Shown: in pieces, positions 17,476-60,094 of the stretch | Layout: each line of letters begins with the position of its first letter | Numbering within the stretch: the stretch's first letter is position 1 | Assembly (NCBI GenBank): GCA_041749335.1 | Contig: JBGTBM010000009.1 | Location: 179-64,178 of the forward strand | Origin: Patescibacteria group bacterium | GTDB lineage: Bacteria > Patescibacteriota > JABMPQ01 | Direction: 5' to 3' | Length of the DNA stretch: 64,000 nucleotides | Program-made: the position numbers and the translations under genes | Notes under the pieces: generated by a model | What the model was told of the DNA's origin: nothing | Database searches by the model: none | Seen by the model: the letters and a program-made list of their open reading frames with translations, nothing else

Positions 17476-17479
17476 AACA

Positions 17480-20789: not shown

Positions 20790-21675
20790 AATAAAAGTTA
20801 GTATAATTATCCCAACATATAATGAAAAAGAGAAATTAATTAATTGCATAAATTCAATATATAATCAAAGCTACCCAAATAATTTAATTGAAGTTATTGT
20901 AATTGATGATGGTAGCACGGATGGAACAAAAAATTATCTAAAATATAATTTTAAAAAAGTATTATTAATTGAAAAGCAAAATACCGGAGCCTATGATTCA
21001 AGAAATAGGGGTATAAATATTGCCACCGGAGATATTTTAGCGTTTACAGATTCTGATTGTGTCGCAGATAAAAATTGGATAAACAATATTGTCAAAAATA
21101 TTAAAGATAGCAAAAATATAATCGCGGGAGGAAAAATAGTTCACAAAAATAATTTTATTCAAAAAGTCATTGGCATTTCCGATTTTGGCGAATATCAAGA
21201 TGACAAAATTAAAAACATTAATGCAATACCAACCGCGAATCTAGCCGCAAGTAAAATTATTTTTGATAAATATCGTTTTGATCAAAGCTTAAAATCCTCT
21301 GGAGACCGCCTATTTAGCTGGAAACTTTTCAAAGATGGATTCAAACTTATATATTTCCCCGACATAATCATATTTCATGATCCATCCATCAAATTATCCA
21401 GATTTTTTGAAAGAAAATATCGTTATGGCAAATCCTTTATAGAAATAAGAAAAAACCATCCCGATTTACCAGGCTCAAAAATAGTTAAGTATCATATATT
21501 AGGCGCTTATTTAATTTCCATCCTAAGAACCATTCTGGATATATTCAGATTATTTAAAACATTGAAAAATAATAATATTAAGATATATGAAATAGTACCA
21601 GCTATCGTACTTATTGGCCTAGGGAGAATTACTTTCTTATGTGGAAATATTGTACAATTGATTAAAAATGATTAA
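20773..21675 (+). CDS. Glycosyltransferase family 2
   Basis: VSIIIPTYNEKEKL...VIVIDDGSTDGT. Confidence 0.8.
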   Translation: MSSINKIKVSIIIPTYNEKEKLINCINSIYNQSYPNNLIEVIVIDDGSTDGTKNYLKYNFKKVLLIEKQNTGAYDSRNRGINIATGDILAFTDSDCVADKNWINNIVKNIKDSKNIIAGGKIVHKNNFIQKVIGISDFGEYQDDKIKNINAIPTANLAASKIIFDKYRFDQSLKSSGDRLFSWKLFKDGFKLIYFPDIIIFHDPSIKLSRFFERKYRYGKSFIEIRKNHPDLPGSKIVKYHILGAYLISILRTILDIFRLFKTLKNNNIKIYEIVPAIVLIGLGRITFLCGNIVQLIKND

Positions 21676-29999: not shown

Positions 30000-31523
30000 A
30001 TGAATAATAATAATAATAATAATAATAAAACTAAATTCATTAAATTTTTTATATATTTAATACCGATATTAATTTGTTTATGGTTATTAAATAAATATTT
30101 CGTTTTTACGGGAAATTTAGATTCTTCCTACGTTTTTGACAATCAACCTTCAATATTTAATGAACTACAACCCGAAACTCGCGTGCATAGCCCAGAAATA
30201 AATTTAAAAACCGGTGAAAAATATCAAAGGATTCAGAGTGAACTGGTTTATTTTTCATTAAATATACCCCGATCTTTTCAAAAAGCTAATTTTACTTTTA
30301 CTTTCGACGCTCCCTCACAGCCAATAATTAATGTCGGAATAAAAAGAGCTTATGAAGATACTAGTTATGAATTTAAAACTTTAAAAAATGACTATTTTGA
30401 TAAATTAAATAAATATTGGACCAAAACTTATGACAAAAATAATAAAATAGTCTTAATGCAAAATTTAAATAAAGAGAATGAAAATTATGATACGGTACAA
30501 GGTTTTATTAATAATCCGCCTCAAAATAAAAAGATTGGAACATATTATATCGATTTAACTGATAATAAAAAATTAGAAAATTATAAACCCTCCAATAAAA
30601 TTAACAATATTGAAACTCCCTTAAGGGGCAAACACGAAATATACACATATATTAAAGATGAAACTCTAGATTATAATTTCTCTTACTATGATTTAAATAA
30701 CGAAGAAGGCCTAGATCAATTTAATATTAATGTATATAAAGGTCTTAAACTCGTTTATTCAAATTTATCTGAAGATGATGGAAATAATAAAGCAAATAAT
30801 TTAGTTTCTGAGTTTAAACAATTCCAACTTAAAATTCCTGATTTGGCTGAAGGTAAATATTTAATAAAACTCGCTTTACCAGAAGATATTATAATAAATA
30901 AAATTACTACCAGGCAGAAATACACTGTATTTGCAAGCAGAATACGCACTGTTGGCAATCGATTAGAATTTAATAATGATTATTCTTTTTCAGAAGTTCC
31001 TGTTAAAATATTTTCGCCTAATTCAAATTTTCAATTAAGAACATTCGGCCCTGTCAGCGAACAAGAAATATTAATAGACAATCAAAGCATTACTTTATCT
31101 TCAAATAACTCATCGCTTATAAATCATTCGACGGGCAAAGAAAATAACGAATTAATAGAAATTAATGCTCCCCTTGGCAATATTTTATTATTGGCACCTA
31201 TCTTTGTTTTTAATAAAGAGCAATATTTTGATCCATATTTTAATATAAACCAAATAGCATTAAATACTGCAATATCAGATGAATTTGATTATATTATTGG
31301 TACCATTGACGATTATTTAACCCCACAAAAATATCGCAATTGGTATAAAAACGAAATATCATTTGAAACCGCTAACGCCTACACGGAAAATGGTGAATTG
31401 AAATTTGCAATTCAAATTCCCGGATTTAACAACATTGATGATGTAATTATAAAAGATATTAAAGTCAACTTGCAGACCGATAATATATTTAAAAGATTAT
31501 TTAATAAAATAAATATTTATTAA
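30000..31523 (+). CDS. Hypothetical TM-anchored extracytoplasmic protein with N-terminal poly-Asn tract
   Basis: MNNNNNNNNNKTK, then one TM helix, then a roughly 470-aa hydrophilic domain with no recognisable motifs. Confidence 0.4.
   Translation: MNNNNNNNNKTKFIKFFIYLIPILICLWLLNKYFVFTGNLDSSYVFDNQPSIFNELQPETRVHSPEINLKTGEKYQRIQSELVYFSLNIPRSFQKANFTFTFDAPSQPIINVGIKRAYEDTSYEFKTLKNDYFDKLNKYWTKTYDKNNKIVLMQNLNKENENYDTVQGFINNPPQNKKIGTYYIDLTDNKKLENYKPSNKINNIETPLRGKHEIYTYIKDETLDYNFSYYDLNNEEGLDQFNINVYKGLKLVYSNLSEDDGNNKANNLVSEFKQFQLKIPDLAEGKYLIKLALPEDIIINKITTRQKYTVFASRIRTVGNRLEFNNDYSFSEVPVKIFSPNSNFQLRTFGPVSEQEILIDNQSITLSSNNSSLINHSTGKENNELIEINAPLGNILLLAPIFVFNKEQYFDPYFNINQIALNTAISDEFDYIIGTIDDYLTPQKYRNWYKNEISFETANAYTENGELKFAIQIPGFNNIDDVIIKDIKVNLQTDNIFKRLFNKINIY
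30003..30029 (+). repeat. (AAT)9 trinucleotide microsatellite inside the start of a CDS
   Basis: aat repeated 9 times immediately after the ATG. Confidence 0.9.
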
Positions 31524-31968: not shown

Positions 31969-33888
31969 ATGAATAAAGTATTTAATTTTAATAAAATTAT
32001 TTTATTAATCAAATATATTAATATTATTTTAATATCTACTACTTTTATATTTTTACTTTATATAATTTTTTATTTGTTTTTATCCTTTAATTATTTAAAT
32101 TTATTATTTACCCATTCTGACATTTTTCTTTTTTCTTTAATATTATTTGATTTATTTATTATTTTTATATTTATTAAAAATAATAAATCATTAAATATAA
32201 ATATTCTTTATTTATATATTGCATTATTTATTTTATTAGAAGTGCCCTTATTAATTAACGGCTTTAATAATTCTATCATCCTTTTTCAAGATTTAGATTA
32301 TAATCAGTGTTTTATTGTAATATTTCTCGGAATGATAATATATTTTTTTACTAACAAGGGTAAATATTTATCTAGCAAAATTTTTAATAATAATTTACTT
32401 ATTATTAATTCTAAAATTAATAATAAGTCTAAATATTCCATATTATTAATATTTTTATTATTTTTACTTATAAAACTTTTAATTCCTTATTTTTATCAAG
32501 GATCATATATTGATGAATATTTTCATATTTTACATGGTATAAATATTTTTAATAACCTTGAAACAAATTATATCCGGGGCCTGCCCATCACCTTTTTATG
32601 CGGCCTACTTATTAATTTATTTGGAAATGAACTTTTTATTTTAAAATTAATTCCGGCAGTTATCGGAATCATAAACTTTTTGTTGCTTTATAAAATATCA
32701 AAATATTTTTTTAATAATTACAAATATACTTCATTATTATTAGCAATTTACACAATTTCTCCTTGGATAATTTTTAATCATTTTTATATAAGGTTTTATG
32801 TTTTGTACGAATTATTATTATTATTATCAATTTATATTTATTTTATAGTCAATAATTCTATAGCGAAAAAAAGATTAGTTTTGTCGCTATTATCCATAAT
32901 CATTTTCATTGTATTTAATGTTTTATTGTTCTTTATAATTAATGATTCCGGCTTTTATATGATAATTATTTTTAATTGTTTTTTAATATTCTTTTTAGTT
33001 ATTAAAAGTATATTAATTTTATCAAATGCAATTATAAAAAATATTTTTAAATATTTTTTTTATATACTTATAACTTTTTTCTTTTTTTATTTATTATTTA
33101 ATAATAAATTTAATTATTTAATAAAAGTAAATCTTGCTAACACCAACTATGAAATAAATAAATATGAATATTTCTTTTTTTATAAAAATATCGGCTTTAC
33201 AATATTATTTATTTTATCAATTTTTATCGCTTTAAAACATTTAAATAAAAAAGGTGAAATCAAATCTCAAAATATTATATTTATAGCTTCCTTTTTAATT
33301 CTGATAATACATTTAATATCTTCAAGTGACTTGCAACTAATTCGAAGTATAGTATACTTTATCCCCTTGTTTTATTTAGTTGCAATTTATTCTCTTAAAC
33401 ATTTAAATATTAAATCTATCTATAAATACCCAATAATGCTATTTTTATTTTTAACTATATTCAACAACTACCCAAGTAAATTTTTTAGCGATGGGCCTTA
33501 TATACCTTCAGAAGTTTTTTACCGAAGATTTAAAGAATCTTTTGACTTTATTAAAAATAATTGTGACGATTATTTCATAATTAATTTGACAAAAAATCAT
33601 TATGTTTCTTCTTTCTATGATATTAACGAATATTATCTTATTAATTCAATTTATTATAACAATCCATTGAGTGTTAATTATGATAATAAATTTATTAATT
33701 ATGAAAAATATAAAAATAAAATAAGAAAAAATGAGAATATATGTTATTTATATTCTCATTTGTGGTCAGTTAATAATAAAAATAAAACCTATCAATCTAT
33801 CCGTAGATACCTTAAAAATAATTATGATGATAAAATATCCTTTGGTAATTTTGAAGTGTTCATTTTTTTAAATAAAAATAATAATTAA
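31969..33888 (+). CDS. GT-C family membrane glycosyltransferase-like protein (ArnT/PMT/YfhO-like)
   Basis: 639 aa with many TM helices. YIDEYFHILHGINIF is DE-motif-like in an early loop. It converges on the GtrB-like GT2. Confidence 0.4.
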   Translation: MNKVFNFNKIILLIKYINIILISTTFIFLLYIIFYLFLSFNYLNLLFTHSDIFLFSLILFDLFIIFIFIKNNKSLNINILYLYIALFILLEVPLLINGFNNSIILFQDLDYNQCFIVIFLGMIIYFFTNKGKYLSSKIFNNNLLIINSKINNKSKYSILLIFLLFLLIKLLIPYFYQGSYIDEYFHILHGINIFNNLETNYIRGLPITFLCGLLINLFGNELFILKLIPAVIGIINFLLLYKISKYFFNNYKYTSLLLAIYTISPWIIFNHFYIRFYVLYELLLLLSIYIYFIVNNSIAKKRLVLSLLSIIIFIVFNVLLFFIINDSGFYMIIIFNCFLIFFLVIKSILILSNAIIKNIFKYFFYILITFFFFYLLFNNKFNYLIKVNLANTNYEINKYEYFFFYKNIGFTILFILSIFIALKHLNKKGEIKSQNIIFIASFLILIIHLISSSDLQLIRSIVYFIPLFYLVAIYSLKHLNIKSIYKYPIMLFLFLTIFNNYPSKFFSDGPYIPSEVFYRRFKESFDFIKNNCDDYFIINLTKNHYVSSFYDINEYYLINSIYYNNPLSVNYDNKFINYEKYKNKIRKNENICYLYSHLWSVNNKNKTYQSIRRYLKNNYDDKISFGNFEVFIFLNKNNN

Positions 33889-36153: not shown

Positions 36154-37023
36154 TTACCTCTTCCATTTAGATAAATCCTTTTTAAATAATATTTCCAACT
36201 GTTCAATATCCTTAATAAATTTTTTTATAAGGTATTTTCTAGTACAATTTTCCATATTTCTATAAACAATTTTTCTTGTCGATAAGTTAATAATCTTTTC
36301 TTTAAAACCGCTTTCTTTTATTTTTTTGATAACGTTTGATAAATTAAATAATATCATTGCTTGAGATAAATATTTCATTAATGATAATATTAATACGTTA
36401 TTAATCTCCCTTGAAGAATTTACTTTTTCATTTATTTTATTTGGAATAAACTCATCATCAACTTCTAAAAATTTATATAATTTTTTTATTTCTATTAAAG
36501 GATTTTGTTTAATATCTTCTATAAATAAAAATATAATTTGTTTTTTATCAAAATATTTTAACCATCTATTAATGTGAAAACTATATAATCCTTTATCAAT
36601 ATACTCCTCTTCTAATCTTACGACATCTTCAAAATCTCTTTTTTCTTTCTTAAAATAATTTTTATACATCAAATACTGTGAATAAGCCCTATCTATCGGA
36701 TTTCTTAAACACACAATTATTTTTATATCAGGAAATTTTATTTTTATTCTTTTTGGTGCTTCTTTATCAATCAAATATTGAGTTGAGAACTCTCCCTTTA
36801 CGCAATTATTTTTACAATGCTTAAAATGTTTTGAATACCACTTAAAAGTTTTATTGAAATTTCTATTTTTAAAATTAAAAATATATGATGATTTTTTATT
36901 AAAATATTGAACTTCTTTTGGTTCAGATAATTCAATCTCGGGATGTTGATCTAGCATTTTTGATAACCATGTCGTGCCTGCTTTTTCTGCTCCTATGCCA
37001 ATAAAGTTAATTTTTAAATCCAT
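36154..37023 (-). CDS. Sulfotransferase (PAPS-dependent family)
   Basis: 5'-PSB motif IGIGAEKAGTTWL and 3'-PB motif CLRNPIDRAYSQY. Confidence 0.75.
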   Translation of the reverse strand: MDLKINFIGIGAEKAGTTWLSKMLDQHPEIELSEPKEVQYFNKKSSYIFNFKNRNFNKTFKWYSKHFKHCKNNCVKGEFSTQYLIDKEAPKRIKIKFPDIKIIVCLRNPIDRAYSQYLMYKNYFKKEKRDFEDVVRLEEEYIDKGLYSFHINRWLKYFDKKQIIFLFIEDIKQNPLIEIKKLYKFLEVDDEFIPNKINEKVNSSREINNVLILSLMKYLSQAMILFNLSNVIKKIKESGFKEKIINLSTRKIVYRNMENCTRKYLIKKFIKDIEQLEILFKKDLSKWKR

Positions 37024-40616: not shown

Positions 40617-41400
40617 TTACTTTAATTTACATACAAATATTGTCCCCGCACAACATATCCATGGAGATATTGACTTTAATATTCCTTCTAATTTATTTCC
40701 GATTCCATTTAATTCATATTTTTTATTTTTTGCTCGTAGAAATGGGAAGTCCATATAAAAACCCATACTTTTAGGTTTTTTAAAATCATCGGCTGCAATT
40801 TCAACAATTTGAAAACCATTCCTAAGTAAAATCTTTTTAAATTTATTTTTTGTAAAACGATATTCGCCAAAAACCATTTTACATCCATTGATTTTATTTA
40901 ATAAAACAAATATATTTTTTATATGATTTATAAATAATCTTCTGATAAAATTTTGAGTTGGAATTGTTATAATCAGATAACCATTTTTTCTTAAAACCCT
41001 TCTCATTTCATCCAAGGCCCCTTGGGGACCCTCCTTAAAATGTTCCACCACTCCTAATGAAATTATTACATCAAAATAATTATTTGGATATTTTATATCT
41101 AATATATTTCCTTTTTCAATTTTAATATTACTTCCAGATAATTTTATTTTTTTTATATATAGCATCATCACTTAACTCTATCCCTTGAATATCATATCCT
41201 TGACTATTTAAATAGAATACCCACCTTCCTAATCCGCATCCCGCCTCTAATATTTTATGAGTTTTTTTTAAATACTTATTAAATATATCATCTACATTTT
41301 GGTATTTACACAATGCAATTCCTTCATTTATTGATTGACCCAACCAACATTGGCCTAAAGTATCTCTATTATTTTCTTTTTGATAATGTATATAAGTCAT
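40617..41400 (-). pseudogene. SAM-dependent methyltransferase disrupted by a frameshift at an A8 (plus-strand T8) homopolymer
   Basis: ORF 41128-41400 carries motif I ILEAGCGLGRW. ORF 40617-41171 carries FDVIISLGVVEHF and LRKNGYLII. The frame switches within the T8 run at 41147-41154. Confidence 0.65.
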
Positions 41401-42374
41401 TTTCTCACTACCTTTCTTCGTTTAATAATATATTTAGGTATCAAACAAAATGCGTTAAAATTTGCTTTTACTAAAATTATAGTCATTTTCCATATTCCGA
41501 TATTTTCTTTTAATTTTTCAACCGATTCATTTTTATTAAAAAAATAAGAAATTTTTAATTTAATATTTCGTAAAGGAAATAATAAAAGATCGAATAATGC
41601 TAGATTTTTAATAGCTGTCAAAATTGAATTCCGCTCACAATAAAAAGATTTGAAGGGAGATGCTACTCCTCCTGTTTTAGAATGAAGGTGGATTAACTTT
41701 GCATTCGCAGATAGATATGATATATAACCCATACTTCGCATCCTAAAACCAATGTCATAATCTTCTGTATATGCAAAAAAATCTTCATCAAAAAATTCTT
41801 TATCTCTGGCAATTATTTTTTTCACCATCTCCCTTTTAAAAAGCGCTGCAACTCCACCAGCAGCAAAAACCTCAGAATCTGTGTTAAGTTCTGGAATTTG
41901 TTCATCGGTCATTCCATATCCCATTGATACCCCCCCCTTTTTATTAATATGTATGCTTTTACTAAACTCTAATCCTGCGTTTTGAATCGTCTTCCCATCA
42001 CTAAAATATGCCTTACTTGTTACAGAGCCAATTAAATTATTTTTTTGAGCAGTTTTAATTAAATTATTTAACCAATTTTTCTCAACAATAGTATCATTAT
42101 TTAAGCAAATTATATATTTTATGTTTTTATCAGTAAGGGCATTCTTAATTCCTTCATTATTACCTTTGGCATATCCATAATTTTTATTAAGTTTAATTAT
42201 TTTTACTTTATTAAAAAATTTTTTTACAAAATTTACGCTATCATCTACAGAACCATTATCAACCAGATATATTACAAAATTTTTATATGTTTGATTGTAC
42301 AAAGAATTCAAACAATCATTTAAATATTCTTTACCATTCCAATTAACAATTATTATTGCTACGTTATCTCTCAT
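41397..42374 (-). CDS. Glycosyltransferase family 2
   Basis: VAIIIVNWNGKEYL...VIYLVDNGSVDDS. Confidence 0.8.
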   Translation of the reverse strand: MRDNVAIIIVNWNGKEYLNDCLNSLYNQTYKNFVIYLVDNGSVDDSVNFVKKFFNKVKIIKLNKNYGYAKGNNEGIKNALTDKNIKYIICLNNDTIVEKNWLNNLIKTAQKNNLIGSVTSKAYFSDGKTIQNAGLEFSKSIHINKKGGVSMGYGMTDEQIPELNTDSEVFAAGGVAALFKREMVKKIIARDKEFFDEDFFAYTEDYDIGFRMRSMGYISYLSANAKLIHLHSKTGGVASPFKSFYCERNSILTAIKNLALFDLLLFPLRNIKLKISYFFNKNESVEKLKENIGIWKMTIILVKANFNAFCLIPKYIIKRRKVVRK

Positions 42375-42439: not shown

Positions 42440-43738
42440 TTATATTTCATTAATAGTATATAAATATTTTCCGTTTTTTAAACAATTAATATTTTTTACA
42501 AATTCCCAATCTATTTTACAGCTTTGTCCCATCACTTTTTTAATTGATTTTTCGATTCTATTTCTGTTCTCTTCAAATAATGTCTTCCTTTCTAAAACAA
42601 CCTTAATAAGTATTTTATTATAATTCTTTTGAATTACTTGAAATTTTTTAATATAGCCTTGATTATAAATTACCCCTATGAAATGTATAAAATATTCCGC
42701 GGGTATAATTTTACCCTCTTTCGTCGTAAATATACTTATTTCCCTACCCTCAACTTTTTCTAAATAACTCCAATTTTCACCTCTAATACCAATATCACCT
42801 ATTTCATATCTAATAAAAGGCATTGAGTAATTATTTAAATTAGTGATATAAATCTTATTATTTTCTAATACTTCTAAATAATTATTCCAAAAACTCAATT
42901 TCAATCCTTGATTAGTATTATCATCACACGCCATATCCCCAACTTCCCTTGATCCATATCGATTAAAAACTTTTGTTTTAAAAACTTCTTCGATCTTCTG
43001 TTTTATTTCTGGATATAGCGTACCAGCGGAAGTTAAAATTCCTTTAGGACTATACATTTTAAAATTATTTCTTTGAATAAATTTAGCGAATTCAGACATT
43101 GACTGAACATATGCCTCTACCCAAACCGGCTTAAACTTATTCCAATCTTTTACAAATTTTCTCATATTCTTTTCTGACATTTTAAAACTATTTAATTCTT
43201 TTCTATTATATAAAAAGTTTTTTAAACGCGTTGAGAACATTTCCTTGTCCAGTAATAAATCCCTCTCTGATCCCCATAAGCGCAATTCTCTATACCCCAT
43301 ATCTTGCTTAGCAAAAGTCTTAAAATATATTTTGTTAGCAATATTCCAATCACTATAATTTTTATCTTAAAGAAATCTTACCGGCTCACCTGTGCTTCCA
43401 CCAGAAGTATTTTCGTAGAATCCTCTTTTTTTGTAATCTTTAGAATATAAATTACTCCCTTCGCTTCTAATTATTTCTTTTGTAAGAATGGGAATTTTAT
43501 TGAAATTTTCCAAATATACTTTATTATTTTTAACAACTCCGGCCACTGCTAAAATCTTATGATAATATAGAACATTCTCGTAGGCATGCTTTAGTATTTT
43601 TTTAAGCTTTTCCTTTTGATATTTCTCCTTTTCCGATAAAGAAAAATTATTAATTTTTTTTATTTCTTTTATGTTTCCAGAAATTTTACTGCCAGCTAGA
43701 TAAAGGAAGAAATATATTATTGGTTTACGCCAGTTCAT
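42440..43738 (-). pseudogene. CapK/PaaK-like adenylate-forming enzyme (phenylacetate-CoA ligase family) interrupted by an in-frame TAA
   Basis: The upstream ORF ends ...TSGGSTGEPVRFL* (AMP-binding motif). The same reading frame continues after the TAA at 43367-43369 (minus strand) as DKNYSDW... into ORF 42440-43300. Confidence 0.65.
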
Positions 43739-44864
43739 CTTTTTTAATTATATCCCTATATATAAGAAAATACTTATTGGCCATATTATCCCAGCTCATT
43801 TTTTCAGCCTTATTTCTACTTTCCCACTTCATTTTTTTAAGTCTTTGCCTATCTGTATATAGATTTTCCAGACTTTTATATATGTCATTTATATTTTTTT
43901 TATTTATAATAATGCCGTTTCTCTTATCGATTAATTCTCTTGTGCCTCCGGTATCAGTTGAGATTATTGCCAACCCAGATGACATTGCCTCTAATAATGA
44001 ATTACTCATCCCTTCATTAAGAGAAGGAAGCACAAATACATCAGATTTTTTATAATAATCATTTATATTATTATGATCAATTGTACCTAATATATTAATT
44101 TTATCTTTGAGGCCAGATTTAATTACTTTTTCTTCTATTTTTTCCCTTAAATTGCCATCTCCTATTATAATCAAGTCACTTTCTTTATATTTCTTATTGA
44201 ATTTAATAAACGCATCAATTAAGTAATTTATTCCTTTTCTTTTAATAAGACGCGATGTTGAAATTATAGTAAATTTATTATTTTCCCTTTTTTGAGGTTT
44301 AAATTTTTCAAAATCAATCCCATTATAAATTACTTCGAAATTTTGTTCTGCGCAGCTCCTTTCCGCTAATATTTTTAATCCTTCAGAATTAGTTACTACT
44401 CGTTTTGATCTTTCCCAAATATTTTTACTTAATCTCTGAAAAATTATTTTATCCAACCAATAAAATCTTTTGTTATAAAAAGGAACATCGCTTCCGCGTA
44501 AACTGACAATATAAGGTAAGTCAAGTTTCATTGCAATATAGCCACATGGAATTCCAAAAAAAGCATGGACTAAATCAAAATTATTTTTTTTATTTAATTT
44601 TTTACAAAATAAATAAGCCCTAAGGGTATAATTTAATATATCTTTATTGCTCTGATAGTGTAAATTTCCCTTTTTACCGATATTTAAAAAGTATATTTTG
44701 ACATTGTCGCTAATATTTTTCTCTTGATATTTGCCTATTGATGAAGTGACTAAAGTAATATTAATATTTTTTTCTTTGGCCAATTCTTTTAATAAATAAT
44801 AAGTCGCATTGCCCGCGCCTCCTCCGAGTGGTGGATATTCATAGTTCAACATTAAAATATTCAT
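43725..44864 (-). CDS. Glycosyltransferase family 4
   Basis: MNILMLNYEYPPLGGGAGNAT at the N-terminus and a C-terminal GT-B domain. Confidence 0.8.
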   Translation of the reverse strand: MNILMLNYEYPPLGGGAGNATYYLLKELAKEKNINITLVTSSIGKYQEKNISDNVKIYFLNIGKKGNLHYQSNKDILNYTLRAYLFCKKLNKKNNFDLVHAFFGIPCGYIAMKLDLPYIVSLRGSDVPFYNKRFYWLDKIIFQRLSKNIWERSKRVVTNSEGLKILAERSCAEQNFEVIYNGIDFEKFKPQKRENNKFTIISTSRLIKRKGINYLIDAFIKFNKKYKESDLIIIGDGNLREKIEEKVIKSGLKDKINILGTIDHNNINDYYKKSDVFVLPSLNEGMSNSLLEAMSSGLAIISTDTGGTRELIDKRNGIIINKKNINDIYKSLENLYTDRQRLKKMKWESRNKAEKMSWDNMANKYFLIYRDIIKKDELA

Positions 44865-44938: not shown

Positions 44939-46081
44939 TTATGGTTGAAATTTTGAAAAGTAATTATAAATTTTACTTTCCGACCAGGCTTCATTATACA
45001 CAACAATTTCATCAATTAAACCCTGGTAATACCTTAAGGTATTACCATCAGTTCCAATTTTGATTATTCCCCCGGGTACAAAAGAAGCTATAGTCTTGCT
45101 GTTTTCCAACATTCCATTAATAATAATGCGTAGATTAGATCCATCGAAAGTAAAGGCCAGATGGGTCCAATCATTATTAATCACATCGGAAGTTGAAAGC
45201 AACCCTGATTGCATTGTAGCAACCCATTTAATAGAAACGCCATCATTCCACATCATTAATCCAGGCAAGTCATCATTCTTCCAAAAAACATATTTCTTAT
45301 CATTAACAGTAGATGGCTTAACCCATGCCATTATAGTATAACCACTGCTGATCGAATCCAAGCTCGCCGAATCCGCCACCTCAATATAACCATCAACTCC
45401 GTTAAATTGAGCCGAACAGCTATCTTGATCTTCACCCGGAACAAAATCCCCGGCATTGCAAGCCAAACTCGCTCCGCCGTATGCCACGCCATTATTGCCA
45501 TTTCCGGAAAGATCGGCCACGTACGTAGGCCAGGTGGTCCAGGCATCGCCGAACTGAAACAGCAGCTTTAGGCTGCCGCAATCCTCGTCAATCTGCCCGT
45601 CGCAGTTATTATCCAAGCCGTCACACACCTCATGACCGCCCATTGAAACACTGCACTGGTATTCACAGCCATCGGCCGGATCATCGTTTTGATCCCACCA
45701 AGTATGCGAAGTTCCTGATACCAAACATTCTGCGACCTGACATTGCCCCAAGATACATTCCGCAGTTGCATTCGGCAGATTGCAGACATTGCCGCAATAA
45801 CCGCAGTTATTGGGATTATTCTGCAAATCAAAGACCTCATCAATCTGGCCGTTGCAGTTATTGTCCGCCCCATCGCAGATTTCCACACCGCCGTTGGTCG
45901 GTACGCACGCGTCATTGTTATTATTGACGTTGGTATCCGGCTGAACTTCTGCGTCCGTCATCCCCGAATCATTATTATGATTCGGCGGCAAAAGTCCGGT
46001 AGCATCAAAAACACATCCCGACAGCGTAATCGCCATTGCAAGCAGATATACGAGATTCAATTCAAATCTTTTCAAAACCAT
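44939..46081 (-). CDS. Secreted lipoprotein with MopE-like Cys-rich metal-binding repeats and a C-terminal LamG/concanavalin-like domain
   Basis: Lipobox LSGC. Repeats CDGADNNCNGQIDE and CDGLDNNCDGQIDEDC. LamG-like C-terminus. GC content is visibly higher than the surrounding DNA, producing many spurious overlapping ORFs in the track. Confidence 0.6.
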   Translation of the reverse strand: MVLKRFELNLVYLLAMAITLSGCVFDATGLLPPNHNNDSGMTDAEVQPDTNVNNNNDACVPTNGGVEICDGADNNCNGQIDEVFDLQNNPNNCGYCGNVCNLPNATAECILGQCQVAECLVSGTSHTWWDQNDDPADGCEYQCSVSMGGHEVCDGLDNNCDGQIDEDCGSLKLLFQFGDAWTTWPTYVADLSGNGNNGVAYGGASLACNAGDFVPGEDQDSCSAQFNGVDGYIEVADSASLDSISSGYTIMAWVKPSTVNDKKYVFWKNDDLPGLMMWNDGVSIKWVATMQSGLLSTSDVINNDWTHLAFTFDGSNLRIIINGMLENSKTIASFVPGGIIKIGTDGNTLRYYQGLIDEIVVYNEAWSESKIYNYFSKFQP

Positions 46082-46210: not shown

Positions 46211-47500
46211 TTATCTTCCTATTCCAACATAATGATATCCCATTTTTTCCATATCGGCTCCCGCCAAAAGATTCCTTCCGTCGATTAAAATATGGGGCTC
46301 TTTAATTAAATTTTTTATTTTATCATAGTCCAATTCTTTAAATTCCGGCCATTCGGTAGCGATAATTACCGCCTTAGCGTCTTTTACCGCAGCATAAGGA
46401 TTATCATGAAATTTTACCGTACCGTTTAACGCGTTATGAGCGTTTTTAGCGGCTTTTGGATCATAAGTAGATACATTCGCACCTAATCCCGTCAAAATGC
46501 GAATAATATCAATTGCGGCCGATTCTCTAATATCATCGGTATTGGCTTTAAATGCCAACCCCAATACCGCGATATTTTGTCCATTTAAATTGCCCAACAG
46601 TTCTTCCAACTTATCTATAACAATTAATCTTTGTTTATTATTTACCTCAATTACCGCTTTTAATAGCTTAAAATCATATCCTTTGGTTCCCGCGATCTGG
46701 TTAAGCGCGTTAACATCTTTGGGAAAGCACGAACCGCCATAACCGATTCCCGCCTGAAGGAATTTGGGACCGATTCTCTTATCAAAACCCATGCCTCTGG
46801 CTACATCTTCCACATCAGCGCCCACCCGCTCACAAATATTTGCAATTTCATTTATAAAAGAAATTTTTGTCGCTAAAAAAGCGTTGCTAGCATATTTAAT
46901 CATTTCCGCGCTTTCTACCGAGACGGTAATTTTAGGATAATCCAAGGGTTCATAAATCTTTAGCATTATATCCCTGGCCCGATTACTATTGGCACCAATT
47001 ACGATGCGATCCGGCTCCATAAAATCCTGGACTGCTGATCCCTCCCTTAAAAATTCAGGGTTGGAAACCACATCAAAATCTCCCTTATATTGTTCCCTAA
47101 TGATATCCGTAACCAACTTGCCTGTTCCAACAGGTACCGTGCTTTTATCAACTATTACCTTGTAATCCTTAATATTCTCGGCAATTTCTCCAGCCACCGC
47201 TTCCACATATTGCAAATCCGCCTTGCCATCCTTTCGAGAAGGCGTGCCCACCGCAATAAAAACAACTTCGACATTATCTAAAACATCCTTGAGTGAATTG
47301 GAAAAATTTAACCTGCCGCTTTTTACTTCGTCTAAAACAACTTTTTCTAATCCCGGTTCATAGATTGGGATCTCGCCTTGCTTTATTCTATTGATTTTTT
47401 CTTGGTCGACATCAACGCAGGTGGTATTATTGCCCAATTTTGCTAAACATGCTCCGGCTACCAAACCCACATATCCGGTACCAACTACAGCAATATTCAT
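46211..47500 (-). CDS. ugd: UDP-glucose 6-dehydrogenase
   Basis: N-terminal Rossmann fold VVGTGYVGLV and the catalytic-Cys motif GGSCFPKD. Confidence 0.85.
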   Translation of the reverse strand: MNIAVVGTGYVGLVAGACLAKLGNNTTCVDVDQEKINRIKQGEIPIYEPGLEKVVLDEVKSGRLNFSNSLKDVLDNVEVVFIAVGTPSRKDGKADLQYVEAVAGEIAENIKDYKVIVDKSTVPVGTGKLVTDIIREQYKGDFDVVSNPEFLREGSAVQDFMEPDRIVIGANSNRARDIMLKIYEPLDYPKITVSVESAEMIKYASNAFLATKISFINEIANICERVGADVEDVARGMGFDKRIGPKFLQAGIGYGGSCFPKDVNALNQIAGTKGYDFKLLKAVIEVNNKQRLIVIDKLEELLGNLNGQNIAVLGLAFKANTDDIRESAAIDIIRILTGLGANVSTYDPKAAKNAHNALNGTVKFHDNPYAAVKDAKAVIIATEWPEFKELDYDKIKNLIKEPHILIDGRNLLAGADMEKMGYHYVGIGR

Positions 47501-47511: not shown

Positions 47512-48678
47512 TTATAATTCTAATACTTTTTTTAAATCATCCGCTTTATCCGTTTTTTCCCAAGAGAAACCTTCTTCATTGCGTCCAAAATGCCCATACG
47601 CCGCGGTTCGAAGATAAATTGGCCTTTGTAAATCCAGTGTTTCAATAATTCCCGATGGTGTTAAATCAAAATTATCTCTAATTAGCTGAACTAATTTTTC
47701 CTCGCTTATTTTTCCGGTTCCCTTGGTATCCGCCATTATAGAAACCGGCTCAGGATAGCCAATCGCGTAAGATATTTGCACTTCACAGACATCGGCCAAA
47801 TCGGCTGCAACAATATTTTTGGCGATATATCTTGCCATATAGGCTCCCGATCGATCTTGTTTGTTAGGTCCTTTGCCACTGAAGCATCCACCACCATGCG
47901 TCCCGCGCCCACCATAGGTATCTACAATTATCTTTCGTCCGGTTAGTCCGGTATCTCCGTGCGGCCCGCCAATTACAAATCTACCCGTCTCATTAACATA
48001 ATACTTGGTATTTTCATCAAGATATTCACCGCACATTGGCTTAATAACCTGCTTTATTATGTCTTCTCTCAATTTTGTCAATTCAATATCTTCATCGTGC
48101 TGCGCCGCGATTACCACCGCCTCAACTCTTTTCGGTTGGCCGTTTTCATATTCCACCGATACTTGCGACTTTCCGTCCGGGCGAAGATAGGAAAGAATTT
48201 TTTCTTTTCTCACGCGAGCTAATTCTCGAGTTAATTTATGAGCCAGCATAATCGGTAGCGGCATTAATTCTTCGGTTTCCTTGCAGGCATAGCCAAACAT
48301 CATCCCCTGGTCGCCGGCACCCATTGACCTTTGTTCATCTTCCACTTCTCCCATCGCTATATCAGCGCTCTGTTCATCTATCACATTCATAACAGCGCAG
48401 CTTTTATAATCAATGCCATAATCGGCATTAGTATAACCAATATTTTTTAAAACCCCGCGAACAATTTTCGGAATATCGACATAATGTTTGGTAGTGATCT
48501 CTCCGCCCACCAATACCATGCCGGTAGTGGTAAATGCTTCACAACAACATTTTCCTTTTGAATCATGGGCAATAATTTCATCTAAAACCGCGTCGGATAT
48601 CTGATCACAAATTTTGTCCGGATGTCCTTCGGTCACTGACTCTGATGTAAAAATATAATTGCTTTTTTTATCTTTCAT
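47512..48678 (-). CDS. metK: S-adenosylmethionine synthetase
   Basis: [16 protein letters not shown] and a C-terminal GGGAFSGKD-like block. Confidence 0.9.
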
Positions 48679-48695: not shown

Positions 48696-49691
48696 TTAAA
48701 AATTACACGATAAATGTTTGCTTTTTTGTTTTATGATATCGGATTTTACCATTAGCTCCACCAGCTGATTAAAAGTCGTTTTGGGCTTCCAACCCAGCTG
48801 TTTTTTCGCCTTGGAATAATCTCCCAATAATACGTCCACTTCGGCCGGACGGAAAAATCTTTTATCTATTTTAATGTATTTTTGCCAATCTTTGATGCCG
48901 GCGGCGGAAAATGCTTCACGCACAAAATCTTTAACCGAATGCGTTTCTCCCGACGCAATAACATAATCATCCGGCTTATTTTGCTGCAGCATCATCCACA
49001 TCGCTTCCACGTAATCTTTGGCATATCCCCAGTCTCTTTTCGCTTCTAAATTTCCTAAATATAAATATTTTTGCTTGCCTAAAGATATTTTTGCCACCGC
49101 GTCCGTTATTTTTCTGGTAACGAACTCCAATCCTCTTCTTTCCGATTCGTGATTAAAAAGTATGCCCGAACAAGCAAACATATTATAACTTTCCCGATAA
49201 TTTATCGTCAGCCAATGTCCATATAACTTTGCTACCGCATAGGGACTGCGCGGATGAAATCGAGTTTCTTCGGTTTGCGGCATCTCGTGAATCTTGCCAT
49301 ACATCTCGCTGGATGATGCTTGATAAAACTTTATTTTGGGATTGATATATCGTATTGCTTCTAACATATTGGTTACTCCCAGCCCCGTTACCATGCCGGT
49401 AACATATGGCTGTTCAAAGGACGTTGAGACAAAACTTTGCGCGGCTAAATTATAAACTTCATCGGGCTTGGATTTTCTCAGCGCCAGCATGATTGATCCC
49501 ATATCGGTTAAATCGGCATAAATTAATTCAATTTTATCCAAAAGATGGATAATATTTCCCATATGATTGCTGCTCGTTCTTCTAAACGTGCCAAAAACCC
49601 GGTAGCCTTTTTCTAGAAGTAATTCAGCTAAATATGAACCGTCTTGGCCGCTGATGCCGGTAATCAATGCTCTCTTTTTTGTTTTCGCCAT
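48696..49691 (-). CDS. gmd: GDP-mannose 4,6-dehydratase
   Basis: [25 protein letters not shown] is the Gmd signature N-terminus. Confidence 0.85.
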
Positions 49692-49736
49692 GTTTTTTTG
49701 TTAAATAAAAAATACTCTTTAAAAAATTAAACTATA

Positions 49737-50681
49737 TTAAATTTTACTGCGCCAATAATCTAATGTCAACTTCAATGTGTCCTTAAAATCTATCTTAGGA
49801 CTCCATTCTAGCTCTTTCTTTATTTTACTGAAGCTTCCGACCGAACAAGCGATGTCAGATGGACGCATTCGGCTTGAATCTTTTTTTATTTTTATCTTGA
49901 TTCCCGAAAAAGATAAAAGCAATTCCAAAATTTCGGCAATGCTATAATGTGTGCCGGAGGCAATATTATAAATTTCACCGCTTTTCCCTTCGGTTGCAAG
50001 AAGATTATAAGCTCGAATAACATCGCGCACGTCCGAAAAATCTCTTATGGCATTTAAATTACCGACCTGAATCACTGGCTGATTTATGCCCTTTTCAATT
50101 TCAGCGATTTGTTTAGCAAAAGCCGGCACCACAAAATTTTCTGTCTGTCCCGGCCCAGTATGATTAAACGCCCGAGATATAATAATTTCCACCTGATCCG
50201 TTATATATTTCTTGGCCATTCTTTCCATTTCCAGCTTGCTTTCCGCGTATATTCCGATCGGATTTTCCATATCACTTTCAGTAAAAGGCCGGCAGTTTGC
50301 GCCAGATCCATAGATATAACTAGTGCTCGCCAACATGATCCTCATTTTTTTCGATATAGTTTGGCAAGACCGTAATATATTAACAGTACCATCTACATTG
50401 ACCTTAAAAACTTTTTCCCGATCGCTTTCATTCCCGGAAGACATAGCGGCCAAATGATAAACATAATCCGGCGTTGATTTTTTTATCACGTTATCAACTT
50501 CAAGCTTATCGGCAATATCACATTTCAGAAATTCCACTTCCGGAAATTTTCCGTGCGAGTCGGTGTAATCCCTATCATCAAGATAGGTGCCGAATATTTT
50601 TACATCCTGATCCCGCCCCAATAAATATTCAGTTAAATATTTTCCAACAAAGCCGGTAATGCCGGTAATTAATATATTCAT
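49737..50681 (-). CDS. rmd: GDP-4-dehydro-6-deoxy-D-mannose reductase (GDP-D-rhamnose synthase, Rmd-like)
   Basis: Blocks ITGITGFVGKYL, RAFNHTGPGQ...FAKQIAEIEKG, GNLNAIRDFSDVRDV and IYNIASG match Pseudomonas Rmd closely. This comparison is from memory. Confidence 0.7.
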   Translation of the reverse strand: MNILITGITGFVGKYLTEYLLGRDQDVKIFGTYLDDRDYTDSHGKFPEVEFLKCDIADKLEVDNVIKKSTPDYVYHLAAMSSGNESDREKVFKVNVDGTVNILRSCQTISKKMRIMLASTSYIYGSGANCRPFTESDMENPIGIYAESKLEMERMAKKYITDQVEIIISRAFNHTGPGQTENFVVPAFAKQIAEIEKGINQPVIQVGNLNAIRDFSDVRDVIRAYNLLATEGKSGEIYNIASGTHYSIAEILELLLSFSGIKIKIKKDSSRMRPSDIACSVGSFSKIKKELEWSPKIDFKDTLKLTLDYWRSKI

Positions 50682-50682
50682 G

Positions 50683-51624
50683 TTATTTTTGATAAGCCTT
50701 TATAGTGCTTACAATCATATCCCGCAGCGTTTCTTTTGGCTCCCAATTTAATAATTTTTTCGCTTTTTCGTACGAGGCAGTTAATTTTGCCACATCCCCC
50801 TCTCTTCTTTCCCCAATTTCATATACAACATCTTTTCCATAAGCCGCGCTAAATTCTTTAATTAATTCTAATACCGATACTCCTCGAGAGGTACCAAGAT
50901 TTATCACATCTGATTGATTAATGCCCAGAGCTTTTATATGTGCTTCAACCAAATCATTAATCCCGACATAATCTCGAATGCAAGTTCCATCGATGGTTTC
51001 ATAATCATCGCCAAATACGGTAAATTTTTCCCTTTTCCCCGTTAATACTTCCATAATTATCGGAAATACATTCTGCGCTTCCGGATCAATATAGTTTAAG
51101 CCCGCATCCCCGGCGACATTAAAATAGCGCAAAGATATGCCGTTTAAGCCTGTTAATTCGGAGTGCCATTTGATTAAATTTTCACAAACCAACTTAGTAT
51201 ACCCATAAAAATTTTGCGGACTGGTCGGATGCTCTTCATCAATGGAGATGTATTTGGGTTCGCCATAAACGGCAGCCGTACTGGAAAATATTAATTTTTT
51301 TATTCCTTTTTCTTGAATGGCATTAATTAGATTAATAAAACCCGTAATATTGTCAGAATATTTAACCGGCTGCTCCATAGATTCTCCCGCTGCTTTATAA
51401 GCCGCAAAATGCATTACCGCGTCAATTTTATTTTCTTTAAAAACTTGACCGACAAACTGTTTATCAATAAGATCTCCAACAAATAATTTTGCCTTGGGAT
51501 TTACCAGCTCTTTTTTTCCTTTTAATAAATTATCTATCACCAGAACGTCGTGATTTTTTTCTATCAAAGCTTTAACTGCCGCACTGCCGATATAGCCCGC
51601 TCCGCCCGTTACCAATATCTTCAT
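50683..51624 (-). CDS. galE: UDP-glucose 4-epimerase (GalE family)
   Basis: MKILVTGGAGYIGS and FSSTAAVYGEP. Confidence 0.75.
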   Translation of the reverse strand: MKILVTGGAGYIGSAAVKALIEKNHDVLVIDNLLKGKKELVNPKAKLFVGDLIDKQFVGQVFKENKIDAVMHFAAYKAAGESMEQPVKYSDNITGFINLINAIQEKGIKKLIFSSTAAVYGEPKYISIDEEHPTSPQNFYGYTKLVCENLIKWHSELTGLNGISLRYFNVAGDAGLNYIDPEAQNVFPIIMEVLTGKREKFTVFGDDYETIDGTCIRDYVGINDLVEAHIKALGINQSDVINLGTSRGVSVLELIKEFSAAYGKDVVYEIGERREGDVAKLTASYEKAKKLLNWEPKETLRDMIVSTIKAYQK

Positions 51625-51625
51625 T

Positions 51626-52423
51626 TTATTTTAATAATTTTTTAGATAAGTATTTTAACTCTTCATTAAATTCCGCTATTGATTTTTCAATAATCGGATC
51701 AAAATTCTGATATATCTTTTTTTCCTTAACCACATTTCCCGCCGTAAGCAGCGAATCAAATGTTCCGGCATCCAACCAAGCTCCCTCAAATTTTTTAACC
51801 TCCAACTCTTCTTGATTTAAATAAAAATTATGCAGATCGACTATTTCAATTTCTCCCCTCTCTGATGGCTTAAGATTTTTAGCGGCATTAACCACTCGAT
51901 TATCATAAACATATAGTCCGGTTATGGCATAATCACTGATCCACTCTTGAGGTTTTTCGACAATTTTTTCCGCTTTACCTTTTTCGTCGAATTTTACCAC
52001 TCCAAATCTTTCCGGATCGCTGACTTTAGTGGCAAATACCATCCCGCCGCGCCTAAAATTTTTAATGTCGTGAGAAAAATCGTCTTCAAAAATATTATCG
52101 CCTAATATTAAAGTGGCATCATCTTCGTCAAGAAATTTTTCTCCTAGAACAAAGGCTTCTGGCAATCCTTTGGGCACTTTTTGTACTTCAAAAACCAGGC
52201 GGATTCCATAATTTTTAAAAAGTGAACCCAATAAATTTAAAAATTGTCCACTATGTTCGGGAGCCACGATAACTAATATTTCTTTAATCCCCGCTTTAAT
52301 TAAGGTATTTAGCGGATAAAAAATCATCTGCCTATCATAAACTGGTAATAATTGTTTAGAAGTAGTGGCGGTCAAAGGATATAATCTGGTGGCGCTGCCT
52401 CCTGCTAAAATAATACCTTTCAT
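51626..52423 (-). CDS. rmlA: Sugar-1-phosphate nucleotidyltransferase, RmlA-like (glucose-1-phosphate thymidylyltransferase family)
   Basis: MKGIILAGGSATRLYPLTATTSKQLLPVYD. At 265 aa it is somewhat short for RmlA. Confidence 0.65.
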   Translation of the reverse strand: MKGIILAGGSATRLYPLTATTSKQLLPVYDRQMIFYPLNTLIKAGIKEILVIVAPEHSGQFLNLLGSLFKNYGIRLVFEVQKVPKGLPEAFVLGEKFLDEDDATLILGDNIFEDDFSHDIKNFRRGGMVFATKVSDPERFGVVKFDEKGKAEKIVEKPQEWISDYAITGLYVYDNRVVNAAKNLKPSERGEIEIVDLHNFYLNQEELEVKKFEGAWLDAGTFDSLLTAGNVVKEKKIYQNFDPIIEKSIAEFNEELKYLSKKLLK

Positions 52424-52433
52424 ATTTTTTGAC

Positions 52434-53273
52434 TTATTTACTTAAATATTCTTTCAAGGCCTCTCGCCACGATCTGAGCTTGGGAAGCTTTGAATTAATT
52501 AAAATTGAATATTGCGGTCTCTTAGCGGGACGAGGAAATTCTTCGCTAGTGCAAGGATTTACATTTATATCCTTGCCTACGTTTTTAAATATTTCCATCG
52601 CGAAATCATACCAAGTGGTTTGTCCCTCATTGGGTAAATGATATACACCGTATGCCGGCTTGGTTTCGATTAAAATTTTTAATGCCTTGGCTAAATCTAC
52701 GGTATAGGTTGGCTTTCCATGCTGGTCGTTCACTACTTTTAATTCCTTGTGATCTTTAGCTAAATTTAACATGGTTTCAACAAAATTCTTTCCATTTTTA
52801 CCAAAAAGCCATGATATCCGAACAATATAATGCTTTTCCATATTCTCTCTCACCATTTTTTCACCCAATGCTTTAGATGCCCCATATTGATTAACCGGAT
52901 CGATTCGATCTTCTTCTTTATATCCTTCCGCTTTCAATCCATCAAATACATAATCAGTGCTAATATGAACTAAAATTGCATTTTCATCCCGGCATGCTTT
53001 GGCAATATATTGTAAAGCTTGGCCATTAACTTTATTGCAGATATCTTTATCCTCTTCACATTTATCCACATCGGTATAAGCGGCAGCATTAATCACGTAA
53101 TCCGGCTTATTTTTTTTAATAAAATCCCGAACCTGATTTTCTTTAGTAATATCAAAATCGGAAATATCCGTACCCACTACTGAATAATTACTATCGGCCT
53201 CAAATTCCCGCATTAAATCCGTACCCAGCATTCCTTTGGCGCCGATTAATAAAATTTTTTCATAAGCTTGCAT
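52434..53273 (-). CDS. rmlD: dTDP-4-dehydrorhamnose reductase
   Basis: ILLIGAKGMLG...VINAAAYTDVDKCE...HISTDYVFDG. Confidence 0.75.
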   Translation of the reverse strand: MQAYEKILLIGAKGMLGTDLMREFEADSNYSVVGTDISDFDITKENQVRDFIKKNKPDYVINAAAYTDVDKCEEDKDICNKVNGQALQYIAKACRDENAILVHISTDYVFDGLKAEGYKEEDRIDPVNQYGASKALGEKMVRENMEKHYIVRISWLFGKNGKNFVETMLNLAKDHKELKVVNDQHGKPTYTVDLAKALKILIETKPAYGVYHLPNEGQTTWYDFAMEIFKNVGKDINVNPCTSEEFPRPAKRPQYSILINSKLPKLRSWREALKEYLSK

Positions 53274-53282: not shown

Positions 53283-53777
53283 TTATTTTTTTGAAATATT
53301 CACTTCAATTGGTTTTTCAAATTTTTTATATTGAGCGGGTGTTATTTCCAGAGAGTCTATAAAGCTCCCTGCGTTTAAATTAATTTTCTTTAATCGCATC
53401 ATGGCTTTATCGCAAAAAGTAACCGCTTTGAATAAACTGCCAAAAGGGGGCAATGCTCCAATTTTTTTGGTTATATTGTTTTTAATCTGGCCCTCCGAAG
53501 CAATTTTAATTGACTTAACCTTTTTTTCTTTCATCTGCTCCAAATATTTGTTCAAGGCTTTTTTAAACTTTACCATATCCAACCTTTTATTGCCCGGAAT
53601 AACCGCAAAGACAAATTTATTATCTGTTTTTAAAAGCAACGTTTTTCCGACACTTTTTATGTCAATTTTTTGAGTTTGTGCAGAATCAAAAGTAGTATAA
53701 ACTTTTTTATGCTGTAATATCTTATATTTAATCCCCTCTTTATCTAATTTATTAATTAATTTCTTTAAAGGAGGCAT
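53283..53777 (-). CDS. YbaK/ProX-family aminoacyl-tRNA deacylase-like protein
   Basis: About 160 aa with IGALPPFG, positioned next to aspS. Confidence 0.5.
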   Translation of the reverse strand: MPPLKKLINKLDKEGIKYKILQHKKVYTTFDSAQTQKIDIKSVGKTLLLKTDNKFVFAVIPGNKRLDMVKFKKALNKYLEQMKEKKVKSIKIASEGQIKNNITKKIGALPPFGSLFKAVTFCDKAMMRLKKINLNAGSFIDSLEITPAQYKKFEKPIEVNISKK

Positions 53778-59617: not shown

Positions 59618-60094
59618 ATGAAAAAGGCTGTAACAATTACTATGTTTATTGGATTAGTATTATTATTTACCGGTTGCTCCTTCCTAAATGAAGAGACAAC
59701 CAATCAAAATATTAATGACAATACGGCAACAAATCAAACAATAGATCAAGAAGTAAAAAATAATAATTTTATATCAAGTAGTAATAATTTTACTTTCTCA
59801 TATAAAAATGACTGGACTTGTAAGGAAGTTGTTAATAATAAAAGAGTAGATTGCTATCCTAGTTCCAGACAAAACGAAGAATATGATGCTGGGTTAGATC
59901 AACGCACTGTTTATTATCCCAATATTAGTATTTGGATAAATAACTGTTCAGCAACTTCACAAGATTTATTTGAAGAGAATCCCGATATGCCCATATTACA
60001 ATTTATTAAGAGCTATTCTAACTGTACGGTTTTAGTAACATCTACTGACGAAACCATTAAAGATGAAGATGATATAAATAAGATTATTTTTTAA
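59618..60094 (+). CDS. Small lipoprotein, unknown function
   Basis: Signal peptide with lipobox LFTGCS, then an Asn/Thr-rich region. Confidence 0.5.
   Translation: MKKAVTITMFIGLVLLFTGCSFLNEETTNQNINDNTATNQTIDQEVKNNNFISSSNNFTFSYKNDWTCKEVVNNKRVDCYPSSRQNEEYDAGLDQRTVYYPNISIWINNCSATSQDLFEENPDMPILQFIKSYSNCTVLVTSTDETIKDEDDINKIIF

Follow-up and report, generated by a model that had tools for sequence, protein, structure and literature searches.

A conserved array of nucleotide-sugar genes, in which enzymes of two probable rhamnose pathways are encoded side by side, lies in a 64,000-nucleotide stretch of contig JBGTBM010000009.1 from a Patescibacteria group bacterium (assembly GCA_041749335.1), called here the window. 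The explanation that we consider likely is that this array combines a GDP-D-rhamnose route, made of Gmd and an Rmd-type reductase, with part of a dTDP-L-rhamnose (rml) pathway that was split by a synteny break. In the proposed scheme, these co-directional core precursor genes would supply sugar donors to an adjoining variable, low-GC glycosyltransferase island. The Rmd-type enzyme, a short-chain dehydrogenase/reductase (SDR), would reduce the C4 keto group of the Gmd product with NAD(P)H to give GDP-D-rhamnose, the stereochemistry being a prediction. RmlA would form dTDP-glucose and RmlD would perform the last reduction leading to dTDP-L-rhamnose, whereas the middle steps, ensured by RmlB and RmlC, would be encoded elsewhere in the genome, as suggested by comparative synteny and orthology. 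A rearrangement would have placed SecDF–AspRS–YbaK where sister lineages have RmlC–HIT–RmlB. GalE and Ugd would be responsible for the interconversion and oxidation of UDP-hexoses, and MetK looks like a housekeeping gene travelling with the array.

The D-rhamnose part of the scheme depends on the 314-residue product of the gene at 49737-50681 (minus strand), which is annotated here as an Rmd-type GDP-4-keto-6-deoxy-D-mannose 4-reductase with GDP-D-rhamnose as its predicted product. This protein is an extended SDR and reaches no NCBIfam equivalog cutoff. Among all PDB sequences, its top two matches are both solved Rmds, from Aneurinibacillus thermoaerophilus (2pk3, 217.6 bits, E 2.7e-63) and Pseudomonas aeruginosa (6x3b, 152.5 bits). 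They are followed by 7us5, a GDP-D-glycero-D-manno-heptose 4,6-dehydratase of the same SDR subfamily (142 bits), and then by 4lw8, an uncharacterised Burkholderia SDR; scores fall to about 94-96 bits for structures of Gmd, GalE and RmlB. Pairwise identity amounts to 38% with the A. thermoaerophilus Rmd (307 residues) and 33% with the P. aeruginosa Rmd (over the C-terminal 248 residues, the N-terminal half aligning poorly), compared with 31% for the neighbouring Gmd, 29% for RmlB and 25% for GalE. A preliminary description of the window, made from the letters alone, had placed this reductase in the Rmd family and had named clustering with Fcl, the GDP-L-fucose synthase, as the result that would contradict the assignment. 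In a neighbour-joining tree, the reductase and four syntenic relatives form one group within the Rmd clade, apart from Gmd, RmlB, GalE, Fcl and RmlD; this is a simple distance tree with 100 bootstraps and one partial reference sequence, from which the topology and not the support values was used. Membership of the Rmd family is thereby established at the sequence level. The gene also adjoins gmd in all five related loci compared (the window, L005, L006/7, L046/47 and L048/49).

The motifs agree with this assignment. The reductase contains GxxGxxG, the catalytic S/T and YxxxK, as well as ITGFVGKYL, IYAESK, FNHTGPGQ, IRDFSDVRDV and RMRPSD. The three blocks pointed out in the preliminary description, GFVGKYL, FNHTGPGQ and RDFSDVRDV, are indeed present and align with GFVGKYL, FNHIGPGQ and RDFTDVRDI of 2pk3. 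FNHTGPGQ, IRDFSDVRDV and RMRPSD also align with Gmd blocks, including FFRPAE of Gmd. Mapped onto the contacts listed in PMC9415975, the shared elements (the Asn of FNH, the Arg of RD[FW], and RPx[ED]) would correspond to GDP-sugar binding. The FNH block ends in GPGQ, as in both proven Rmds, whereas it ends in ...ERR in Gmd and in ...PRR in 7us5 and in 44 of the best 120 homologues. This ending favours a reductase over a dehydratase, a correlation drawn from few characterised proteins.

The active-site loop is where the enzyme departs from its characterised relatives. It reads STSYIYG, with a Tyr at the position occupied by Glu in the A. thermoaerophilus Rmd (SSEEYG) and in Gmd (SSSEMYG), and by Asp in the P. 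aeruginosa Rmd (SSGDVYG). A loop of the form ST[SG]Y[IVA]YG is shared by the reductase and its 30 nearest homologues, that is by 31 of the best 120 homologues. For contrast, the dehydratase loops read SSSEVYG in 7us5 and STDEVFG, with an Asp-Glu pair, in the RmlB of L046. Since both the Gmd-type Glu and the RmlB-type Asp-Glu pair are missing, the reductase is not a hidden 4,6-dehydratase.

The same Tyr loop feeds the most serious of the alternative explanations, namely that this member of the Rmd family yields another product. It could deliver GDP-6-deoxy-D-talose by reduction from the opposite face, or take a different GDP-4-keto sugar as its substrate, for instance a heptose. An identity of just 33-38% to the proven Rmds and the nature of the next PDB matches, a GDP-heptose enzyme and an uncharacterised protein, leave room for such a difference, and several sugars are known to branch off from GDP-4-keto-6-deoxy-D-mannose (PMC9415975, PMC3584063). 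GTS of Aggregatibacter actinomycetemcomitans takes the Gmd product as its substrate and reduces it at C4, with a stereochemistry opposite to that of Rmd (PMC9415975); the likeness drawn here is one of substrate and reaction. However, the two best solved-structure matches both form D-rhamnose, and the gene is always found beside a bona fide Gmd and not beside heptose-pathway genes. The 7us5 dehydratase itself differs by its SSSEVYG loop and ...GPRR ending, compared with STSYIYG and ...GPGQ. The loop position already varies between the two proven Rmds, and hence does not count among the known determinants of stereochemistry. We thus regard a different product as unlikely, although more likely than the other alternatives. 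What holds of the GDP-D-rhamnose pathway announced in the preliminary description is the family membership of both enzymes; the C4 configuration (D-rhamnose or 6-deoxy-D-talose) lies beyond what a sequence can tell, and GDP-D-rhamnose is the product predicted from the proven relatives.

The closest known system is the Gmd/Rmd pair of A. thermoaerophilus, which acts in S-layer glycan synthesis. The two share the adjacency of gmd and rmd and the blocks GFVGKYL, FNH[TI]GPGQ, RDF[ST]DVRD and RPS[DE]. Besides the loop, they differ by their hosts, that of the window being a Patescibacterium, and by their settings: the A. thermoaerophilus genes belong to an S-layer glycosylation cluster, whereas those of the window sit in a core array flanked by housekeeping genes, and their product is a prediction. 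The gmd-rmd genes for the common polysaccharide antigen (A-band) of P. aeruginosa follow the same two-step logic, with the GPGQ block in common, and this species also has rml genes for L-rhamnose (bioRxiv 10.1101/854612). In contrast, the wbpX/Y/Z and wzm/wzt ABC-transporter context of the A-band was not identified in the window, where Wzx-type flippases are found instead. The idea that a rare precursor would fit surface-protein glycosylation was speculative: Rmd-like proteins are plentiful in metagenomes, with 6116 matches at E<=1e-20, and nothing identifies the acceptor.

Database names for this Rmd-like family are unreliable. Homologues of the reductase are labelled 'GDP-mannose 4,6-dehydratase' by NCBI and 'GDP-4-dehydro-6-deoxy-D-mannose reductase' by JGI. 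The family is indeed mixed, some members having a dehydratase-like signature (SxE with ...PRR, 44/120) and others a reductase-like one (...GQ).

The partner enzyme Gmd (GDP-mannose 4,6-dehydratase, 331 residues, 48696-49691, minus strand) scores 443.2 bits on TIGR01472, above the cutoff of 415, and 452 bits on PF16363; its catalytic blocks SSSEMYG and YAVAK contain the expected S/T-x-E loop and YxxxK. On the other side of the reductase, GalE (UDP-glucose 4-epimerase, 313 residues, 50683-51624, minus strand) reaches 334.1 bits on TIGR01179 for a cutoff of 262.3. Its loop reads SSTAAVYG and is devoid of the dehydratase Asp/Glu pair; both the curated scores and this loop rule out that GalE could be an RmlB in disguise. 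GalE is 74% identical to its L005 orthologue, and L006 and L048 have another SDR in that slot. The open reading frames (ORFs) listed in the preliminary description were each found in place. According to these curated profiles and catalytic blocks, together with those given below, the identities of Gmd, GalE, RmlD, MetK and Ugd are established, as is the core of RmlA.

The L-rhamnose part starts with RmlD (dTDP-4-dehydrorhamnose reductase, 279 residues, 52434-53273, minus strand), which scores 322 bits on TIGR01214 (cutoff 224) and has PDB 1vl0 as its best match (262 bits). The catalytic STDYVFDG and YGASK align with 1vl0, the Thr, Tyr and Lys residues being all present. RmlD shares 57-60% identity with the RmlD of L046 and L048, which adjoin RmlB and RmlC; a search of genome contigs with RmlD brought no close relative, the best match having 45% identity and belonging to other phyla. 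RmlA (glucose-1-phosphate thymidylyltransferase, short form, 265 residues, 51626-52423, minus strand) scores 285.7 bits on TIGR01207, under the cutoff of 360.65, because of a shorter and divergent C-terminus: residues 1 to about 250 align, and the last 28 or so of the 265 residues diverge. Its best PDB match is the RmlA structure 4ho0 (248.5 bits over residues 1-237), with which the blocks GGSGTRLYPLT, VQ..P.GL, EKP and WLD.GT align. It is 67-70% identical to the RmlA of 264-275 residues found beside RmlC, RmlB and RmlD in loci L050 and L053. RmlA and RmlD appear thus to be ordinary members of the rml pathway, since they are orthologous (57-70% identity) to those of clusters that bear rmlB and rmlC.

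The preliminary description had noticed that neither rmlB nor rmlC accompanies these two genes, and every search of the window agrees with it. Pfam scans of the 48 window ORFs of at least 150 residues gave no PF00908 match and nothing RmlB-like, and one-by-one inspection of the remaining ORFs with 50 residues or more revealed nothing resembling a cupin epimerase. Hidden Markov models (HMMs) of RmlB and RmlC were built from 11 and 12 genuine genes, respectively, located beside rmlD in unrelated genomes, and were run on the six-frame translation of the window. The best RmlB score, 108.7 bits, is that of the Rmd-like paralogue, compared with 487-639 for true RmlB, and the best RmlC score is 5.5 bits (E 0.88), compared with 288-325 for true RmlC. 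A short RmlC of the type found in the candidate phyla radiation (CPR) would have shown up, since such proteins score 61-64 bits on the same model. The result for the window was equally negative when RmlB and RmlC of Patescibacteria served as queries.

Comparison with related loci gives a plausible account of this absence. In L005, a 551-kb contig (Rmd 70% identical), the order SecD-SecF-AspRS-YbaK-RmlD-RmlA-SDR-Rmd-Gmd-MetK-Ugd is the same as in the window, and L006/L007 (Rmd 56% identical) also keep the window order from SecD through Ugd; the 20-kb neighbourhoods of L005 and L006 contain neither rmlB nor rmlC. More distant relatives show RmlC-HIT-RmlB-RmlD-x-Rmd-Gmd-MetK-Ugd (L046/47, Rmd 53% identical) and RmlC-SDR-HIT-RmlB-NUDIX-RmlD-RmlA(long)-x-SDR-Rmd-Gmd-MetK-Ugd (L048/49, Rmd 52% identical). 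The RmlB of L046 and L048 are genuine by their scores on the RmlB model (513 and 487 bits) and their motif STDEV[FY]G. Compact RmlC-(HIT)-RmlB-x-RmlD-RmlA clusters, with a short RmlA of 264-275 residues, are found in two other Patescibacteria, those of L050 and L053 (GCA_037443825.1 and GCA_964526325.1). The window resembles this Patescibacterial layout by its orthologous short RmlA and RmlD and by the RmlD-RmlA order; unlike it, it has no RmlC, HIT or RmlB upstream, and the AspRS-YbaK pair abuts RmlD. The YbaK-like gene (53283-53777, minus strand; tRNA-editing domain PF04073, 60.9 bits) marks the upstream synteny boundary, in the place where relatives have RmlB. Among the homologues, the relatives that bear a name belong to Patescibacteria, Falkowbacteria and Kuenenbacteria. 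In sister lineages, the D- and L-rhamnose genes form a single array, from which the RmlC-HIT-RmlB half appears to have been separated in the lineage of the window. Because RmlA and RmlD are orthologous to members of complete clusters, and because sister lineages have RmlC-HIT-RmlB just upstream of RmlD, it is very likely that rmlB and rmlC are encoded elsewhere in this genome.

Two further observations were made on these loci. In L050 (GCA_037443825.1, region 8549-17931), the complete rmlC-B-x-D-A cluster is flanked by a DUF4012 protein on one side and by L9-CTP synthase on the other. These flanks recur in the window at 7224-13142 (DUF4012 33%, L9 32% and PyrG 47% identity), but between them an S41 peptidase, a small ORF and an acylphosphatase stand in place of the rml cluster; the slot of this cluster thus differs among Patescibacteria. 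In L006 (7827-9821), as well as in L007, Gmd is 664 residues long and its match breaks off past residue 245 or so, where about 330 residues with a LAGLIDADG_3 homing-endonuclease domain are inserted, probably as an intein in the GDP-mannose dehydratase.

Several points speak against the split-pathway and GDP-D-rhamnose explanation. RmlB and RmlC genes were not found for this organism, the search having covered the 64-kb window, and a lineage-wide loss is conceivable because three genomes lack both genes within 10 kb of rmlD. RmlA fails its NCBIfam equivalog cutoff. ManB and ManC, which would supply GDP-mannose, are likewise missing from the window, and missing partners are for this reason not peculiar to the rml pathway. 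Finally, we know of no characterised member of the Tyr-loop Rmd subclade (31 of the best 120 homologues), so that substrate and C4 stereochemistry are predictions.

A true loss of rmlB and rmlC in this lineage would imply that RmlA supplies GalE and Ugd in the role of a (d)TDP/UDP-glucose pyrophosphorylase, RmlD being either a relic or a reductase of some other 4-keto sugar. Both genes are absent not only from the window but also from the neighbourhoods of the two array-sharing relatives; in addition, no GalU was seen in the window, yet GalE and Ugd require UDP-glucose, and RmlA enzymes are able to bind it (PDB 1mp3-1mp5). On the other hand, the intact RmlD fits an unchanged function: it retains its catalytic blocks and is 57-71% identical across the lineage and in genomes bearing RmlB and RmlC. 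The scattering of pathway genes is common in CPR genomes, and dTDP-L-rhamnose synthesis is reported to be conserved in Patescibacteria (PMC9166423). A loss looks improbable in this light. Of the two options left by the preliminary description for RmlA and RmlD, partner genes located elsewhere is thus the more probable by orthology and synteny, and the use of a different nucleotide sugar is not favoured. Even further from what we expect is a bolder version, in which the lineage (the window, L005 and L006) lost rmlB and rmlC and keeps RmlA and RmlD under selection next to Gmd, RmlA being the (d)TDP/UDP-glucose pyrophosphorylase of the cell, the RmlD-type reductase acting on the Gmd product, and the Tyr-loop Rmd representing a new specificity class. 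D-rhamnose and 6-deoxy-D-talose would in that case both derive from a single dehydratase, Gmd, whose product would be reduced at C4 by two enzymes with opposite stereochemistry.

The last alternative, that the 314-residue SDR is an Fcl-type GDP-L-fucose synthase or a second dehydratase/epimerase replacing RmlB, could draw on its generic extended-SDR character and on the dehydratase name given to its homologues by NCBI pipelines, but it is refuted at the sequence level by 42.4 bits on NF047922 for a cutoff of 500, by 19% identity to E. coli Fcl (217 residues, E 0.045; reference sequence identical to PDB 1bsv), by the loop devoid of the dehydratase Glu or Asp-Glu, and by an RmlB score far below the range of true RmlB.

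From 63.9 kb down to 46.2 kb, all genes lie on the minus strand, except for a small unassigned plus-strand ORF (59618-60094) situated between two FG-GAP genes. Their order is SecA (truncated by the window end), two FG-GAP proteins, SecD, SecF, AspRS, YbaK-like, RmlD, RmlA, GalE, the Rmd-type SDR, Gmd, MetK and Ugd, and homologies in the array have E-values of 1e-63 to 1e-181, well past chance. MetK (S-adenosylmethionine synthetase, 388 residues, 47512-48678, minus strand) scores 578 bits on TIGR01034 for a cutoff of 309. Ugd (UDP-glucose 6-dehydrogenase, 429 residues, 46211-47500, minus strand) scores 481 bits on TIGR03026, the nucleotide-sugar dehydrogenase subfamily, for a cutoff of 190, and 603 bits on the TuaD model, under its cutoff of 700; all three UDPG_MGDP_dh Pfam domains are found. 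MetK is, as had been described, embedded in the array between gmd and ugd, just outside the 48696-53273 range in which it had been placed. It occupies the same position in L005, L006, L046/47 and L048/49. The suggestion that it might feed the methyltransferases of the island is not supported by this position, which is kept in five loci regardless of the island that follows and is thus uninformative in this respect.

Intergenic gaps between the SecD and Ugd genes are of 1-45 nucleotides, or the genes overlap. Promoter- and terminator-like sites between 44.8 and 58.2 kb have the same frequency as in shuffled controls, so that co-transcription rests on spacing only: the 1-45 nucleotide gaps on one strand, with no terminator-like excess, are compatible with it. 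Rfam and tRNA scans of the window gave no match. The best sigma-70-like match in the region (49769-49741, minus strand, TTGACA-17-TAAAAT, 11/12) lies within the final codons of the Rmd-like gene, immediately 5' of gmd; gmd-metK-ugd might have an internal promoter there, such sites not being above their shuffled frequency overall. Directly after ugd, the gene at 44939-46081 (minus strand) encodes a Laminin_G_3 (concanavalin-like lectin) domain with MopE-type Cys-rich metal-binding repeats, and the same type of protein directly follows ugd in L005 (14686-16068). A clean terminator-like hairpin (44927-44901) is located 3' of the window gene.

Beyond this gene lies the low-GC island. The window core has a G+C content of 35-39%, and the nucleotide-sugar genes share this core composition (35-42%) as well as conserved synteny, whereas the island (20000-44000) is at about 25%, down to 17.8% at 32-34 kb. 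It encodes GT2 and GT4 glycosyltransferases, two Wzx-type flippases, methyltransferases, a sulfotransferase (36154-37023) and a PMT_2-like GT-C protein (28304-29947); the large ORFs at 21668-23320, 30000-31523 and 31969-33888 have no Pfam match. At 24227-26743 (minus strand), an 838-residue fusion combines ferredoxin and FrhB/FdhB-like (F420 hydrogenase beta) modules with a polysaccharide pyruvyl transferase domain. The island looks variable, since the L005 genes after the Laminin_G protein differ from those of the window. It is usual for conserved precursor genes to adjoin a variable island of transferases, and the donors made by the array would be used by the GT4/GT2 glycosyltransferases, methyltransferases, sulfotransferase, pyruvyl transferase and Wzx flippases of the island.

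Two island genes look interrupted. A class I methyltransferase at 40617-41421 (minus strand) appears split into two overlapping frames, the N-terminal part that binds S-adenosylmethionine (41131-41421, minus strand) and the remainder (40617-41171, minus strand), whose GTG start is artificial; a frameshift, due to pseudogenisation or to an assembly error in AT-rich sequence, is the probable cause. At 42440-43747 (minus strand), two consecutive same-strand ORFs of 126 and 286 residues have no Pfam match and could together represent a second split gene. The last residues of the upstream piece are ...NTSGGSTGEPVRFL, which we take to resemble the phosphate-binding loop of PaaK/CapK-like adenylate-forming enzymes.

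The value of these findings lies chiefly in annotation, and they open no new mechanism; what novelty is left concerns the Tyr-loop Rmd subclade and the small chance that the lineage is truly devoid of rmlB and rmlC. The synthesis of dTDP-L-rhamnose has been reported as conserved across Patescibacterial classes (PMC9166423, PMC11809585, PMC4736985). As for the GDP-D-rhamnose route, a stringent survey (bioRxiv 10.1101/854612) had restricted it to Pseudomonas and Aneurinibacillus, and its prediction here in Patescibacteria is at odds with that survey. The conserved Patescibacterial array RmlD-RmlA-SDR-Rmd-Gmd-MetK-Ugd predicts that both D- and L-rhamnose donors would be made by organisms with very small genomes.

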